The notes under the pieces were generated by a model that did no database searches, was not told the origin of the DNA, and saw only the letters and a program-made list of their open reading frames with translations. From positions 55,347 to 119,346 of the forward strand of contig NZ_DATCTO010000012.1 of NCBI RefSeq assembly GCF_036567905.1: a stretch of 64,000 nt of DNA, read 5' to 3'. A program made the position numbers and the translations under genes. Source of the DNA: Candidatus Binatus sp. (GTDB taxonomy: Bacteria; Desulfobacterota; Binatia; Binatales; Binataceae). Of this stretch, positions 50,296-56,493 are shown piece by piece (position 1 is the stretch's first letter; each line of letters begins with the position of its first letter).

Positions 50296-51735
50296 TCACC
50301 CGGCGAGCCTTGCGCGCAGGATATCGTTGATCACTTTCGGATTTGCCTTCCCGCCCATCGCCTTCATCACCGCGCCGACGAAAAATCCGAACAGCTTGTC
50401 GCGTCCCGCGCGATACTCGGCGACTTTTTCCGGCTCCGCCGCCAGCACCTTGTCGCAGGCCGCCGCGATCGCGCTCTCATCCGATACTTGCGCGAGTCCC
50501 AGCTCGGCGATTGTCGCCTCCGCCCCTTCCCCGGATTTCACCATCGCGGCAAACGCGGTCTTCGCGGCATTCAGGCTTATCTTCTGCTCTTCGACCATCC
50601 GCAGCAGCGCGCCGACCTCGCGCGCCGGCGGCGCCGCTTCGACGAACGACTTGCCTGAGTCGCGCGCGACGCGCAGCACTTCGCTCATCACCCAGTTCGC
50701 CGCGCTCTTGCGATTCTTGAGTCCGGGCAGCGTTGCTTCGAAGTAGTCGGCGACGTCGCGGTCGGCGATCAGCACGCCCGCCTCGTATTCCGTCAGGCCC
50801 AGTTCGCGCACGTAGCGCGCCTTCCGGTCAGCCGGCAGTTCGGGCATCGAAACGCGCACCTTTTCCACCATTTCGGCCGGAACAATCAGCGGCGGCAGGT
50901 CCGGCTCGGGGAAATAGCGATAGTCATTCGCATACTCTTTCGAGCGCATCGGGCGCGTTTCCTTGCGCGCGGGATCCCACAGATGAGTCTCCTGCGCGAT
51001 TTTGCCGCCCGATTCGACAATAGCTATTTGGCGTCCGACCTCATAGTCAATTGCGTCTTCGACGAAGCGGAAGGAGTTGAGATTCTTAATCTCAGTTCTG
51101 ATGCCATACTCCTTCGCGCCGCGCTTGCGGATCGACACGTTGCAATCGCAGCGGAAGCTGCCTTCCTCCATCTTACCGTCGGACGCATCGACGTATCGAA
51201 GTATCGCGCGCAGTTGGCGCAAGTACGCGCCTGCGTCCTCGGCCGAGCGCAGGTCGGGCTCGCTGACGATCTCGATCAGCGGCACCCCCGAGCGATTGAA
51301 ATCGACCAGGCTGGCGTTTTCGCCGTGGATGTTCTTGCCCGCATCTTCCTCGATATGAATTCGGGTGAGCCCGATTCGGCGCGGCTCGCCATTGTCAGCC
51401 GGCGGCAAATCGATATAGCCACCTTTGCAGATGGGAGTTTCGTACTGACTAATCTGGTAGCCCTTGGGCAGATCGGGATAGAAGTAGCTCTTTCGATCGA
51501 AAATAGAATAGGGCGCGATCGCGCAATGCGCCGCCAGCCCGGTTCGAATCGCGAGCTCCACCACGCGGCGGTTGAGGACCGGCAGCACGCCGGGCATCCC
51601 CATGCACACCGGGCAGACGTTTTCATTGGGTCCCGCGCCGAAAGTCGTCGAGCATCCGCAGAACAGTTTCGAGCGGGTGAGAAGATGGGTGTGGACTTCG
51701 AGTCCGATCACCGCCTCGTATGCTTCCCGATTCAT
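50296..51735 (-). CDS. gatB: Asp/Glu-tRNA(Asn/Gln) amidotransferase subunit B
   Basis: VIGLEVH, FDRKSYFYPDLPKGYQISQ, HIEEDAGK, DYRYFPEPDLPP. Confidence 0.98.
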   Translation of the reverse strand: MNREAYEAVIGLEVHTHLLTRSKLFCGCSTTFGAGPNENVCPVCMGMPGVLPVLNRRVVELAIRTGLAAHCAIAPYSIFDRKSYFYPDLPKGYQISQYETPICKGGYIDLPPADNGEPRRIGLTRIHIEEDAGKNIHGENASLVDFNRSGVPLIEIVSEPDLRSAEDAGAYLRQLRAILRYVDASDGKMEEGSFRCDCNVSIRKRGAKEYGIRTEIKNLNSFRFVEDAIDYEVGRQIAIVESGGKIAQETHLWDPARKETRPMRSKEYANDYRYFPEPDLPPLIVPAEMVEKVRVSMPELPADRKARYVRELGLTEYEAGVLIADRDVADYFEATLPGLKNRKSAANWVMSEVLRVARDSGKSFVEAAPPAREVGALLRMVEEQKISLNAAKTAFAAMVKSGEGAEATIAELGLAQVSDESAIAAACDKVLAAEPEKVAEYRAGRDKLFGFFVGAVMKAMGGKANPKVINDILRARLAG

Positions 51736-51797
51736 CGCAATTATCCGTCAGAGCGCGCGTGTGACGCTAACACACAGCGGATAGCGAAGGCGACTGT
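51736..51797. repeat. Cassette-junction repeat, copy A (52-bp core 51746-51797)
   Basis: CGTCAGAGCGCG(c)GTGTGACGCTAACACACAGCGGATAGCGAAGGCGACTGT matches 53522-53573 at 51 of 52 positions. Confidence 0.95.
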
Positions 51798-51799
51798 CT

Positions 51800-52912
51800 C
51801 TACGATCCCGCCGAGGTCCGATGTTTTATCGGTGGACGATTTAGCTCGACTGGCTCCTCGTTTACTTGACGATAATACTCATCGGGTTCCTGCCCATACG
51901 AAAGCCGCGCTTTTGCAAGTTTCGCCACGACCGGATCCGAATCGGCGGCGAGATCCTTGAGATCCGCCATCGCCTCGGGCGTGCCTATATAGGAGAGAAT
52001 GACCGCTGCCCTCACCCGCTCGTTGGGATCGCTGTTCTCTGAAGCCTTGATGGCGTCGCTCATGGTGGCGTCTGAGTGTATGCCAAGAAACGCTTCGGTT
52101 TTTGCGGCTTCCACTCGCTCACAGTCATAATCCGAATCAGGTGTGGGGGCAGGGGCTGCGGCTGGCGATGAAGATGCGGCGGGAGCGGGAAACAATGCCC
52201 CTCCCCCCATCGAATGATCGTTCGAAGAATTGGCGAAAGACCCAGCCGGGGGAACCGGAACCATCGCCGGCTGAGGCGCTGGCGTCTGGCCAGCCGCCGG
52301 CGCTTGCGCCTCTTCAGCGCCGGAGGAACTAGCGGCGATCTGCTTTTTCAGAGACTTGAGATGCTGCTCGTAATATCCTTTGTACTGGCTGCTTACCTCG
52401 GTATAGCCGCCGCCCCTCCAGGCGAAGATCATAGGCCATTCGGCGTCGCATCCAAGGCGCCGGCTTTCAGAGGGCGCCAGCGGACCATATAGGACCAGCT
52501 CGAGATTGCCGTCGTGCTTGATATCCTGGATGCTGTCGCGAAGATTTTCCGTTGAATTGGCGAAGGTTGAGTAATGTTCGAAACCGGATGACGTCTTATC
52601 GAAAATTTCGGTCCCCTCGCACCCTGCCGTAGCGCCAACATCGATCACAACAACTAAGGAAAGGTTGCCGGAGTGGCGCAAATCCGCGAAGCGAAAGTCG
52701 CATACGTGGCCGAAGCCATTGCGAAACGGGCCGCTCACGAATGCCCATACAGCATCTGCCGGGGGTGAATTCGACGCCAGATTGTGAGCGCTTTTAACCG
52801 ACCAATCGGCCGTCGCCAGGTTAGGCTTAGCAGCCGAGGTTTGGGCCCATCCGGCTAAGGATAGTAGGCACGCCGAGCAAAACGCGACAACAACGGCTGC
52901 TATCTTGTTCAT
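51800..52912 (-). CDS. Secreted hypothetical protein (FG-GAP/VCBS-like motifs, Pro/Ala linker, C-terminal HEAT-like repeat); paralog of 53611-54693
   Basis: Signal peptide MNKIAAVVVAFC...GWA-Q; FADLRHSGNLSLVV, IQDIKHDGNLELVL; RVRAAVILSYIG...LKDLAADSDPVVAKLA. Confidence 0.8.
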   Translation of the reverse strand: MNKIAAVVVAFCSACLLSLAGWAQTSAAKPNLATADWSVKSAHNLASNSPPADAVWAFVSGPFRNGFGHVCDFRFADLRHSGNLSLVVVIDVGATAGCEGTEIFDKTSSGFEHYSTFANSTENLRDSIQDIKHDGNLELVLYGPLAPSESRRLGCDAEWPMIFAWRGGGYTEVSSQYKGYYEQHLKSLKKQIAASSSGAEEAQAPAAGQTPAPQPAMVPVPPAGSFANSSNDHSMGGGALFPAPAASSSPAAAPAPTPDSDYDCERVEAAKTEAFLGIHSDATMSDAIKASENSDPNERVRAAVILSYIGTPEAMADLKDLAADSDPVVAKLAKARLSYGQEPDEYYRQVNEEPVELNRPPIKHRTSAGS

Positions 52913-52929
52913 GGAGTGTTTCATTATTG

Positions 52930-53511
52930 CTAGCATTTCTTCTTCTGGCATTGTTTAAGGTTAATGGGAGGATCTGGTGATGGTGGCGTTCCAGTGCACG
53001 TAGAGGTGGACCCGCCAGGCGGAGCAGTATTACGGACGCCTGCTACATAGCAGACACCGCAGTAATTCTTGGCCGTATTAATTTCCCATTGCCACTGTAC
53101 TGAGCACGTGGTCTTATCCGTCACCTTCCCAGAGCATTGGGGGGCGTAGTATTGCGCAGATTCTACTTTTCCTGGATGAGGACCGTATAATTCCAGCGCC
53201 ATCTCTTCCAACTGACATCTAGTCAGGTCTGGTGGCATTGGAGCGTAACTAGTTTGCATACCGACAGCAAAGGCATCCGCCGTGTTCAATGCGTTCTGAA
53301 ACACGCCTTGAACACCGTCCTGCGTATTTTGCAGCCAATTCCAGGCATCTGGTTGAGAGACCGGAACCTGCATTAGGCCGATGTGCGATCCCGCGGCTGA
53401 TTTAGGTTTTTTGGTCGGCAAGCTCTCGTTAGGCCAAGAATCAATTATGCCGTACGGTGCCCTAGGCGATTTTGCAGGCATAAAGAACTGTTCATAGGTG
53501 CTTTCCTTCAT
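52930..53511 (-). CDS. N-terminally truncated, Cys-rich, lysozyme/lytic-transglycosylase-like domain (putative orphan effector)
   Basis: ES motifs (residues 3-4 and 29-30), GLMQV, 8 Cys, no signal peptide, in-frame TGA four codons upstream of the ATG, lower GC than the flanks. Confidence 0.55.
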   Translation of the reverse strand: MKESTYEQFFMPAKSPRAPYGIIDSWPNESLPTKKPKSAAGSHIGLMQVPVSQPDAWNWLQNTQDGVQGVFQNALNTADAFAVGMQTSYAPMPPDLTRCQLEEMALELYGPHPGKVESAQYYAPQCSGKVTDKTTCSVQWQWEINTAKNYCGVCYVAGVRNTAPPGGSTSTCTGTPPSPDPPINLKQCQKKKC

Positions 53512-53573
53512 CGCAAACGCGCGTCAGAGCGCGAGTGTGACGCTAACACACAGCGGATAGCGAAGGCGACTGT
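53512..53573. repeat. Cassette-junction repeat, copy B (52-bp core 53522-53573)
   Basis: Near-identical to 51746-51797. Confidence 0.95.
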
Positions 53574-53610
53574 GCTTGCGATACCGCCGCTGACCCCGCG
53601 CGAACCCAGA

Positions 53611-54693
53611 CTACTTCGGCGGCGAGCCGGCAGGCGGCGGCTCAGCCTCCTCCCGCTCGATCATGTTCAGACGCGGCCCTCGCCCGGCGAATCCAAGATA
53701 GACATTTGCGCCAGCTGCAACAACTCGATTCGGATCGCGGCTCAAGGTCCGCAACTGTTCGACTGCATCTGGTGTCCCTATATCTCCCAGCACGCTGGCG
53801 GCAAACTCTCGCTGGTATGGGTTGTCGCTGTCCGCCCACTTTATCGCATCGGCCATCCCAGCATCCTTATCGATGCCTAGAAAGCGTTCGATCTTCGCGG
53901 CTTCCGCCTTGGCGCAGTCCAGGCTTCCGGTGAGTGTGACGGCTGGTGAGGCCGCTGGCGACGGAGAAGGCGGAGGTGCGGGGACGACTTGTGCGGCCCC
54001 AACCCCGTTCGAAGAAGCTGGCGAAGACTCCGTGGTAGACATTCGAGTTATCAGAACCGGAATCCTGTGCGCCACAGACCCCGGCGTTTGACTAGCCGCC
54101 GGCGCTTGCGCCTCTTCAGAATGAGCGGCGATCTGTTCCTTCAGCGCGGCCAGCTCCTGCTCGTAATAGCTTGTGTACTGGCTGCTCACGTCGGTGTAAC
54201 CCTTGCCGGTCCAGGCATAGATTACGGGCCAAATGGCTACGCAGTGCATGGCTCCCAAGTAGGAAGTGAACTCCGTGGCCACTACCAGCTGGAACTGGCC
54301 GTTTCCCGCCAAATCTCTGACTTCCCAAGAACCCGGACGCGCAGGGGCAGCATAGCTCTCGAACCCGGACGGCGTTTTGTCAATTACCGATAGCTGGCAG
54401 TTCCTACCGTCTGAATAGGAAACAACTAATGACAGATTGCCGGAGTGGCGCAGGTCAGCAAACTGAGACGAGCATATGCCGAGTTGAAAAAGCTCGCCAC
54501 CGTCGGTGATCTCGTGAAGAAAGGCCAGCACCGCGTCATCGGACGGAGGATTGCTCGCCAAGCTATGCGGCGAGTTGACTGACCAATCGGCCGAGCCCAA
54601 GTCGGGTGGCGGAGAAGCCGTCTGGGCCCATCCGGATGACGATGATAGGCAGGCCAAGCAAAACGCTAGAACAACGGCTGTTATCTTGTTCAT
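53611..54693 (-). CDS. Secreted hypothetical protein (FG-GAP/VCBS-like motifs, linker, HEAT-like repeat); paralog of 51800-52912
   Basis: Signal peptide MNKITAVVLAFC...GWA-Q; FADLRHSGNLSLVV, VRDLAGNGQFQLVV; REFAASVLGDIG...LRTLSRDPNRVVAAGA. Confidence 0.8.
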   Translation of the reverse strand: MNKITAVVLAFCLACLSSSSGWAQTASPPPDLGSADWSVNSPHSLASNPPSDDAVLAFLHEITDGGELFQLGICSSQFADLRHSGNLSLVVSYSDGRNCQLSVIDKTPSGFESYAAPARPGSWEVRDLAGNGQFQLVVATEFTSYLGAMHCVAIWPVIYAWTGKGYTDVSSQYTSYYEQELAALKEQIAAHSEEAQAPAASQTPGSVAHRIPVLITRMSTTESSPASSNGVGAAQVVPAPPPSPSPAASPAVTLTGSLDCAKAEAAKIERFLGIDKDAGMADAIKWADSDNPYQREFAASVLGDIGTPDAVEQLRTLSRDPNRVVAAGANVYLGFAGRGPRLNMIEREEAEPPPAGSPPK

Positions 54694-54700
54694 TGGTTGC

Positions 54701-54722
54701 CGCAAATGTCGGTCAGAGCGCG
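54701..54722. repeat. Junction motif CGCAA-N6-GTCAGAGCGCG containing the gatA stop codon
   Basis: Same 16 fixed bases and the same spacing at 51736-51757 and 53512-53533. Confidence 0.85.
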
Positions 54723-56173
54723 GGGGTGCGCGGCTTGAATGCTCCCGTGCGCTCGAAGGCGTCGCCCGCGCGCAGGAGTGTTTCCTCGGCGAACGGCGGC
54801 GCGATCAATTGCATCCCAATCGGCAGATTATTCGAATCGTGGCCGCACGGAATCGACATCCCCGGCAGACCGGCCAGGTTGACCGAAATCGTAAAGATGT
54901 CCGACAGGTACATCGTCAGCGGATCGTTCATCTTCTCGCCGATCTTGAACGCGGTGGTCGGCGCAACCGGCGTGACGATCAAATCGCACTGCTCGAACGC
55001 GCGCTCGAAGTCGTTGCGAATCAGCGTGCGCACCTTTTGCGCCTTCAGATAGTAGGCGTCGTAGTAGCCCGCCGAGAGTGCGAAGGTGCCGAGCATAATG
55101 CGGCGCTTGACCTCGGCGCCGAAGCCGTGCGCCCGCGTGGTTTCGTACAGCGCGATATTATCCTCGGCGTTGACGCGCAGGCCGAAGCGGATACCGTCGT
55201 AGCGGGCGAGATTGGCGCTCGCCTCGGCGGTCGCGACCAGGTAATACGCCGCGATCGCGTAGCCGGTGTGCGGCAGCGAGATTTCGACGGTCGAGGCGCC
55301 CAGAGATTCGTAGCTCTTGAGCGCGGAGCGCACCGACTGTTCGACTTCGGGCTGCATCCCTTCGACGAAATATTCCCGGGGCACGCCGATTCGGAGTCCC
55401 TTGACGCTGCCCGTCAGCGCGCGTTCGTAGTCGGGCACCGGACGCGCCGAGCAAGTCGAATCGCGAGCGTCCTTGCCGGCCAGGGTGCGGAGGATTATCG
55501 CGGCGTCGCGCACCGATCGCGCAAACGGCCCGACCTGATCGAGCGACGACGCGTATGCGATCACGCCGTAGCGGCTGACGCGGCTGTAAGTCGGCTTGAT
55601 CCCGACCACGCCGCAGAACGACGCCGGCTCGCGAATCGATCCGCCGGTGTCGGTGCCGAGCGCACCCAGGCATTCGTGCGCCGCGACCGCGGCGGCGGAT
55701 CCGCCCGACGATCCGCCGGCGACGCGCGCGGTATCATGCGGATTCATCGTCGGCCCGAACGCGGAGTTCTCGGTCGAGGAGCCCATCGCGAATTCATCCA
55801 TGTTCGTCTTGCCGACGAAAACCGCGCCGTCGGCGCGCAGGCGCTCGATCACGGTCGCGTCAAACGGCGGCACGAACGTCTCGAGGATTCGCGACGCGCA
55901 GGTCGTGCGAATGCCTTTGGTCGCGTAAATATCCTTGATGCCGAGCGGAATCCCGCATATCGCCGGCGCGTTGCCCGCGCCGAGGCGAGCGTCGGCCGCG
56001 CGCGCCTGCTCGAGCGCCTCCTGCTCGCATACCGTGATGAACGCGTGGAGCCGGGGCTCGGCGGCGGCGATGCGGTCGAGGCAATCGCGCGTCAACTGCG
56101 TCGCGGTGATTTCGCGCGCGCGGAGCTTCGACGATGCGTCGGCGATTGTAAGTTTGTTCAGTTCCGATGCCAT
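54713..56173 (-). CDS. gatA: Asp/Glu-tRNA(Asn/Gln) amidotransferase subunit A
   Basis: [68 protein letters not shown]. Confidence 0.98.
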
Positions 56174-56196: not shown

Positions 56197-56493
56197 CTAC
56201 TCGATTATTTTCGGCACTTTGAAGTAACCGCGCTCGCGCGAAGGCGCGTTCGCGAGCATCGCGTCCGCGTCGGGCCGGTTGGTCACCTCGTCGTCGCGCA
56301 TGGGCGTGCCGGCCTCGCCGACCTGCGTGGTCGGCGCGACATCTTTGGTGTCGAGTTCGTTCAATTTATCAACGTAGGCAAGCATTTCGTCCATGTCGGC
56401 GCGCAGGCGCTCTTCCTCTTCCGGCGACCATTTCAGGCGCGCCAGACGCGCGACGTGGCGCACCTGCTCGAGGGTTATTTTTGTTCCAGCCAT
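56197..56493 (-). CDS. gatC: Asp/Glu-tRNA(Asn/Gln) amidotransferase subunit C
   Basis: ITLEQVRHVARLARL, MRDDEV, NAP...GYFKVPKIIE. Confidence 0.95.
   Translation of the reverse strand: MAGTKITLEQVRHVARLARLKWSPEEEERLRADMDEMLAYVDKLNELDTKDVAPTTQVGEAGTPMRDDEVTNRPDADAMLANAPSRERGYFKVPKIIE

Follow-up and report, generated by a model that had tools for sequence, protein, structure and literature searches.

A hypervariable gene islet between gatA and gatB of Candidatus Binatus, probably shaped by recombination without a dedicated enzyme

Arrays of orphan toxin fragments and immunity genes are found at polymorphic toxin loci, such as those of CdiA-CT/CdiI and the Rhs orphans. Homologous recombination is documented to drive the turnover of genes at hotspots flanked by conserved core genes (Oliveira et al., 2017, PMC5635113). 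In islands of the tycheposon or tRNA type, successive integrations displace older elements inward, and partial copies of the tRNA are left behind (bioRxiv 10.1101/2020.12.28.424599). Here, we describe an insert inside the gatCAB operon of a Candidatus Binatus genome (contig NZ_DATCTO010000012.1). The window that we analyzed is 64 kb of a 125-kb contig, and the 3.4-Mb genome is a metagenome-assembled genome (MAG) of 103 contigs. As a previous reading of the window without genome comparisons (the sequence-only reading) had noted, gatA and gatB were separated by three co-oriented open reading frames (ORFs), with 2,977 nt between the gatA stop and the gatB start. That reading suggested that the insert could be the work of an undescribed cassette-acquisition system acting in trans. 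The explanation that we favor, at a probability of roughly 0.65, is that gatCAB contains an insertion hotspot occupied by a hypervariable gene islet, best explained by recombination without a dedicated enzyme.

Like the core-gene hotspots (PMC5635113), the gat locus is bounded by conserved core genes, varies in content between close relatives, lacks hallmark genes of mobile elements, and has mosaic alleles. Unlike those hotspots, it lies inside an essential operon, between genes normally 14-23 nt apart; moreover, its units each end in a duplicated junction that restores the downstream start, and its cargo is drawn from one paralog family. With tRNA-targeting elements and tycheposons, the locus shares a repeated target at unit ends, tandem units, and regeneration of the interrupted gene by a copy at the element end, but the gat units are only 1.2-1.8 kb long, carry no integrase, replication module, or second arm, and have a protein-gene junction as their target. 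Integron cassettes also form arrays of promoterless co-oriented ORFs, with a repeated element at each unit end and expression from an upstream promoter. The gat array differs from them in having no attC, IntI, or attI and in having a repeat that duplicates coding and spacer sequence of the host.

We located gatA and gatB in 41 Candidatus Binatus genomes; both genes were found in 38, and nine genomes of the genus were unresolved at the gat locus. Matches to gatA that were judged orthologous, one per genome across the genus, had 84-97% identity. Of the 38 species in which both were located, 33 had a gatA-gatB gap of 14-23 nt, and the native junction read ...CCCGCGGTCTGAC-GGACAY-TTGCG-ATG. Most close-gap genomes, the closest relatives included, had ...AAGCCGCGGACACCCGCGGTCTGAC-GGACAY-TTGCG-ATGAATCGGGAAGC, and about a third differed in spacer and start; the empty sites of G013 and G002 read ...cccgcggtctgac-ggac(g/a)c-t(g/t)gcg-ATGaatcgg. 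Comparison of 3' ends gave a gatA C-terminus of ...PAV* in the empty-site species versus ...KPRTPAL* here. Looking for empty sites in relatives, as the sequence-only reading had advised, thus turned them up in the closest ones, with gatB 94-97% identical. Separately, gatA was read in two overlapping frames in G035 (L048 4089-4342) and G002 (C5:161775-163230), so that this essential gene either is frameshifted there or was misassembled.

On the minus (coding) strand, to which all coordinates refer, CGCGCTCTGAC-N6-TTGCG was present, as had been described, at all three junctions of the insert (54722-54701, 53533-53512, and 51757-51736, with N6 = cgacat, gcgcgt, and ggataa, respectively). It was equally correct that the gatA TGA lies inside the first copy and that an ATG follows directly after the second, where it starts ORF2, and after the third, where it starts gatB. 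No additional match was found in the window with up to 2 mismatches allowed, and these three were the only exact copies in the whole genome; shuffling the window gave an expectation of 0.31 matches, and three were reached in 1 of 100 shuffles. The left arm of the motif consists of the final gatA codons and stop, and the right arm of the bases preceding the gatB ATG, while N6 differed by species at the empty sites (ggacac, ggacgc, ggacat, ggaaat, ggatac, and others). Judged by these comparisons, CGCGCTCTGAC-N6-TTGCG is the native gatA-stop/gatB-start junction of the genus and not a recombination core, and N6 is the free, unconstrained middle part of the gatA-gatB spacer. What had been taken for fixed arms around a variable 6-bp core were the gatA-stop and gatB-start regions around a spacer that varies at empty sites too.

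Inserts between gatA and gatB were found in three species (the host genome, G005, and G035) and on two metagenome contigs. The number and content of units varied among relatives, as had been anticipated: no unit in 33 species, one in G035 and on contig L078, a decayed unit in G005, and two here. The proposed architecture also held, each unit consisting of cargo, a conserved end element, and a regenerated gatA/gatB junction. In the host genome, G005, G035, and L078, the end element was always at the unit end and was conserved more than the cargo. The G005 allele, of the HEAT family (NZ_JBEKFG010000032), recurred in many peatland metagenomes.

The simplest layout was that of the G035 allele (CAWDLC010000015), whose insert was one ORF plus the end element, which we call the tail, and nothing more. 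On its left, gatA ran through ...CACACCCGCGCTCTGAC-GGACAT-TTGCA-ATGAATCGGCAAGCATACGAGGCG into a 363-aa ORF and then the non-coding tail; past the tail, the sequence read CACACCCGCGGTCTGAC-GGACAT-TTGCAA-ATGAACCGGGAAGCATACGAGGCG... and ran on as gatB. The insert was thereby flanked by a direct repeat of 52/53 nt with 92% identity, which started 17 nt before the end of gatA, took in the spacer, and extended 24 nt into gatB. Because this repeat reaches into gatB, the insertion appears to have entered the first gatB codons, with the right-hand copy restoring gatB.

The left ends of the units were less uniform. In G035, the left junction copy extended to about gatB nt 24-26. The middle junction copy of the window (J2) kept only ATGAA of gatB (to nt 5), fused in frame to ORF2, and the copied gatB ATG served as the ORF2 start. 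In the left copy of the window (J1), the 7 nt GCAACCA stood between TTGCG and the ORF1 ATG, and the copied gatB start was absent; the architecture of L078 was identical. An 8-nt deletion of the copied start may account for J1, although this is one reading of an ambiguous case. In G005, the left junction copy was lost or decayed, the gatA C-terminus was altered to ...TAAGTL*, and the left end aligned with that of G035 at 77% identity. As the left end differs between alleles, a fixed crossover point does not fit. From the sequences compared, the differing left ends look like a single old junction that decayed in several ways rather than repeated cutting at one point.

The two internal junctions of the window matched at 51 of 52 positions (51746-51797 versus 53522-53573), as reported earlier, and this match sat within an 83-nt repeat of 87% identity. 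The flanking paralogs were indeed only about half identical, ORF1 and ORF3 sharing 45% at the protein level. The small hairpins noted in the repeat were present but not significant, as their folding energy equaled that of shuffled sequences. The N6 of J2 (gcgcgt) was identical to that of the right junction of G005.

Features of the gat locus and its insert (coordinates within the window)
Feature	Coordinates	Strand	Description
gatC	56197..56493	-	First operon gene; translation MAGTKITLEQV...; ortholog on G005-type contigs matches Pfam GatC
gatA	54713..56173	-	486-aa amidase subunit; C-terminus ...KPRTPAL*
J1, left junction copy	54701..54728	-	Last 17 nt of gatA including TGA, spacer cgacat, TTGCG
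ORF1	53611..54693	-	360 aa; A-type secreted HEAT-repeat protein with signal peptide
Tail copy 1	53540..53589	-	Conserved non-coding end element CGGCGGKATCG...GCTGTGTGTTAGCGT; also in G005, G035, and L078
J2, middle junction copy	53507..53539	-	CACACT, CGCGCTCTGAC, gcgcgt, TTGCG, ATGAA
ORF2	52930..53511	-	193 aa; 5'-truncated, C-terminal domain of ~500-aa partner
ORF3	51800..52912	-	370 aa; B-type secreted HEAT-repeat protein
Tail copy 2	51764..51813	-	From repeat comparison
J3, right junction copy	51736..51763	-	CACACG, CGCGCTCTGAC, ggataa, TTGCG; gatB ATG directly after
gatB	50296..51735	-	479 aa, intact; 82-97% identity across the genus

Multiple observations indicate that the content of the locus turns over by recombination. 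In a maximum-likelihood tree, the five gat-locus proteins were polyphyletic, falling in three separate, well-supported places with nearest relatives at other loci. ORF1 grouped with copies from outside the gat locus (P0006, P0003, and P0004), and the G005 protein paired with P0010 of G062 (75% identity, support 97). Relationships also changed within single genes. Windowed identities showed that the central linker was 83-86% identical among ORF3, G005, and L078, whereas the flanking domains were 42-69% identical and followed other paralogs. Between its ATG and a point ~50 nt short of its stop, ORF3 shared 78% nucleotide identity with the P0055 locus, and the first ~25 nt of the ORF1 3' flank matched the native 3' flank of P0005. 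The L078 allele had an ORF1-like 5' end, a gene body of its own, and a ~110-nt ORF3-type 3' remnant ahead of the tail; in G005, remnants of a B-type 5' end and of a partner 3' end lay upstream of the gene. The gat flanks, by contrast, were 91-100% identical in nucleotide sequence while content was zero, one, decayed, or two units. For L078, flank identity to the host genome was 94.7-100% (mostly 97-100%), generally closer than for any species representative, and the cargo differed. Near-identical flanks around different cargo argue that turnover is fast relative to flank divergence. The locus thus showed both features of core-gene hotspots, namely conserved flanks around variable content and mosaic alleles, the latter evident from windowed identity, remnants, and polyphyly.

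The nearest relative of ORF3, P0055 (L094, JBLFKX010220431.1), had toxin-antitoxin-like genes around it, among them one PIN-like and one Gp49/HigB-like ORF, and this region looks flexible.

The cargo of all five alleles belonged to the HEAT-repeat family or to its ~500-aa partner. The HEAT-repeat proteins had signal peptides and a weak HEAT_2 match; for ORF1, Pfam HEAT_2 scored 8.6e-6, under the family cut-off. ORF1 had 115 homologous clusters, and those with a named source were nearly all labeled Binataceae; within the sampled relatives, the family was confined to this genus. At loci other than gat, the family occurred in a module ordered as an NHL-repeat protein of ~930 aa, a secreted protein of ~500 aa, an A-type HEAT-repeat protein, and a B-type HEAT-repeat protein. 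We rejected the possibility that ORF1 and ORF3 arose by duplication in situ followed by divergence, as the A and B types are old paralogs that are adjacent in native modules; the 45% identity of ORF1 and ORF3 reflects this old paralogy and not divergence in place. ORF1, ORF2, and ORF3 had no other copies elsewhere in the host genome, and because neither family has another copy there, the units appear to have been imported. The GC content of the insert (52-62%) was lower than that of the gat genes (60-70%). No terminator-like site was found at either junction or tail, and the insert held just one weak site, in ORF1, which was at chance level. As the inserted genes are co-oriented with no predicted terminator, they probably ride on the gatCAB operon transcript.

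ORF2 matched residues 317-493 of a 499-aa protein encoded upstream of P0003 (BLASTP, 2e-11). A full HMMER scan gave a family of 257 clusters (clustered at 50% identity), and in matches of at least 400 aa (mostly 400-610 aa) the matching segment was at or near the C-terminus. This position identifies ORF2 as a gene that has lost its 5' part and begins at the copied gatB start. Residues invariant in the family were E3, F9, W26, P27, G45, E102, W142, and Y155; the domain has an invariant Glu in an ES.Y.QF motif, plus a GLMQ motif. ORF2 had no match in Pfam and no sequence match in the PDB, and its structural model (predicted local distance difference test score, pLDDT, 78.7) had no PDB fold match (best E = 2.5). 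The model suggests that this C-terminal domain family may be an undescribed domain. The ES...GLMQ motif with its invariant Glu makes a lytic transglycosylase (SLT or lysozyme-like) a possible lead, which the fold search did not support. We rejected the idea that the ORF2 N-terminus MKESTYEQ is a relic of the gatB start MNREAYEA, as it matches ES.Y.QF of the partner and only ATGAA comes from gatB.

The full-length partner carries a Sec-type signal peptide, and modules with a secreted Cys-rich protein of ~500 aa were seen at non-gat loci of Binataceae metagenomes (L087, L095, and L090). At L095, a 133-aa truncated partner stood ahead of the A gene, so orphan partner fragments occur outside the gat locus too. 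As in CdiA-CT/CdiI and Rhs orphan arrays, a 5'-truncated C-terminal fragment (ORF2) is followed by a variable secreted-protein gene, and conserved and hypervariable blocks form mosaics displaced by recombination. The gat array departs from them in the Sec-type signal peptide of its full-length partner and in an ORF2 model that matched no PDB fold. One hypothesis is that the partner and HEAT-repeat proteins could be a toxin/immunity or an enzyme/inhibitor pair.

The G009/G018 lineage, which is more distant, had gatA followed by a convergent NHL-repeat gene (873-881 aa). An unrelated 4.8-kb block without junction duplication lay between gatA and gatB of G009 (L064 1212-6001), where gatB came after an SDR gene and a pair of small lipoprotein-like genes; in G018, gatA and gatB were on different contigs (L096 208-2881). 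In G029, a HEAT paralog (L011 1402-2592) sat tightly between an aminotransferase gene and hom, which are adjacent in the host genome (C20). Comparison of G029 with this empty site showed no clear duplication, and a general 50-nt duplication mechanism for the HEAT family was therefore not seen.

A ~50-nt non-coding tail (CGGCGGKATCG...ACAGTCGCC...GCTGTGTGTTAGCGT) adjoined the right junction copy in all alleles, and the last ~16 codons of ORF3 were part of an extended tail common to L078, G005, and G035. The tail was absent away from the gat locus in the 47 genomes of the genus. Among one genome per GTDB species and metagenome contigs, the tail plus junction occurred only in gat-locus alleles; these two large-collection scans used an exact 20-mer and would miss diverged arms. 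The concern that the 52-nt repeat might be a scattered repetitive extragenic palindromic (REP) element was dispelled, as it was confined to the gat locus in all three scans, and we rejected a generic REP for the tail itself, which was present just twice in the genome and was absent from other loci across the genus. Several other origins were considered for the tail. Descent from a diverged gatA 3' end was unsupported (local alignment against shuffles, p = 0.16-0.25), and the tail was absent at six non-gat paralog loci, where a source gene's 3' flank would carry it. A structured RNA or terminator was likewise rejected: tail plus junction matched no Rfam family, folded no better than shuffles as RNA (z = 0.36) or as single-stranded DNA of either strand (z = -0.2 to 0.8), and had no terminator-like site. 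A 31-nt part of the tail (51774-51804) had a match of 91% identity antisense to an Slt70-like lytic transglycosylase gene in the same genome (C23:17946-17976). This match recurred at the orthologous place in six close relatives, with E about 7e-4 per genome, and may be chance or an old fragment.

We also searched for the marks of known recombination systems. The junctions are not attC sites, as the sequence-only reading had recognized, with neither RYYYAAC nor GTTRRRY in J1, J2, or J3, and its observation that no recombinase is present extended to the full 125-kb contig, which had no tyrosine recombinase (PF00589). Integron hallmarks were missing in other respects too: there were no attC cores or fold, no intI with attI (gatC-gatA lie upstream), and no diverse unrelated cargo. 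For a Tn916-type element, N6 proved to be native spacer and neither Int nor Xis was found. For a transposon or insertion sequence, there were no inverted repeat pairs at unit ends and no transposase ORF, and the duplication was 52 nt, not 2-14 bp. Direct repeats of the target at both ends, as expected of an integrative element, were present (52/53 nt, 92% identity, in G035; 28-nt copies in the window). The same arm was not found as part of an intact element at other sites or in other genomes, the tail being at the gat locus only. The ORF list of every allele held only HEAT-family or partner genes, with no integrase or integrase remnant. Phage-type tyrosine recombinases did occur elsewhere in the host genome, and tyrosine recombinases were present both in genomes that have units and in genomes that lack them.

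We propose the following history. An ancestral gene of the genus-specific secreted HEAT-repeat family would have inserted ~24 nt into gatB, by illegitimate recombination or an integrase event, duplicating ~52 nt of target (17 nt from the end of gatA, the 11-nt spacer, and 24 nt from the start of gatB). The right copy, together with the ~50-nt tail, would then have stood ahead of gatB, restoring its start and upstream context. Comparison of alleles shows that the locus was reshaped afterward, on this account by three processes that require no dedicated enzyme: exchange between the direct repeats alters unit number (0, 1, or 2); gene conversion or replacement from module paralogs overwrites the interior, yielding mosaic genes, traces of previous occupants, and the 5'-truncated ORF2 with its start taken from the gatB copy; and the left copy of the gatB start, being useless, decays lineage by lineage. 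Conserved gatA and gatB flanks would, in addition, let whole alleles pass between strains and species by homologous recombination.

Several points weigh against this history. It explains neither how the first insertion came about nor where the tail originated, the tail being neither a gatA 3' end nor a flank of the paralogs examined. The tail core is 51/52 identical within the genome while adjacent bases differ, which needs short-tract gene conversion or some constraint. Repeats of 50 nt are close to the lower limit for RecA-dependent exchange. Finally, two tails, each with a regenerated junction, in one genome would also be expected from successive site-specific integration.

Such integration could have been the work of an integrase-carrying element that inserted successively and then decayed, its attachment site (att) being the gatA/gatB junction, with the 52-nt repeat as core and the tail as the element-side arm, and its integrase and most of its body since lost or supplied in trans. 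The ~52-nt direct repeat of the target around the G035 unit, the conserved non-coding arm beside the right repeat in all alleles, and the phage-type recombinases elsewhere in the genome are all compatible with this history, as are the tandem units here with a partial target copy between them, which resemble successive integrations (bioRxiv 10.1101/2020.12.28.424599). We nevertheless consider it unlikely: no allele holds an integrase or a fragment of one, G035 being one ORF and a tail; the left side has no conserved arm; no tail-bearing element was found in the 47 genus genomes or, by exact 20-mer, in one-per-GTDB-species genomes or metagenome contigs; integrase count does not follow cassette presence; and the cargo always comes from one chromosomal paralog family. 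The trans-acting cassette system of the sequence-only reading, adding units of cargo plus end element successively and site-specifically at the gatA stop, would account for the real unit architecture, the varying unit number, the existence of empty sites, and an end element that is always terminal and conserved beyond the cargo. This proposal did not survive the comparison well and now seems quite improbable, given that its supposed core is native spacer within a long target duplication (52/53 nt), its left boundaries are unfixed, its cargo is limited to one module with truncated and mosaic genes, no folded site, attC core, linked recombinase, or circle was found in the assembled sequences, and the element occurs at one site, with no second one, in the collections searched.

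A related idea, that tail plus junction form a true recombination site through which populations swap promoterless units of the secreted module at gatA/gatB, is distinctly unlikely. If it were true, excised circles would re-enter by a trans-acting recombinase or by RecA acting on the 52-nt repeat, and the locus would be a cassette system that draws on an essential operon both for expression and for safe harbor. Very improbable is an assembly artefact, in which strain variants were joined chimerically at the repeated junction. The genome is a MAG of 103 contigs, the 83 nt common to both internal junctions could mislead an assembler, and L078, which is very closely related, carries a one-unit allele whose outer junctions are the same. 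Yet the region is interior to a 125-kb contig, independent assemblies and many samples contain one-unit and decayed alleles built on the same plan, and the genome offers no second copy of ORF1, ORF2, or ORF3 to supply a chimera. Recombination without a dedicated enzyme at an insertion hotspot therefore remains our preferred explanation. Discovery of circles or of a fixed crossover point would make the locus a new cassette system.

The locus carries a general caution, in that a repeat with "fixed arms and a variable core" can be a native gene junction duplicated at insertion. It also provides a natural case in which insertion between normally adjacent essential genes is tolerated, apparently because each unit brings a fresh copy of the start region of the downstream gene. 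Finally, the comparison defines a fast-evolving, Binataceae-specific secreted-protein module, composed of an NHL protein, a ~500-aa protein, and paired HEAT-repeat proteins, whose pattern of turnover resembles that of toxin/immunity or surface-variation loci.

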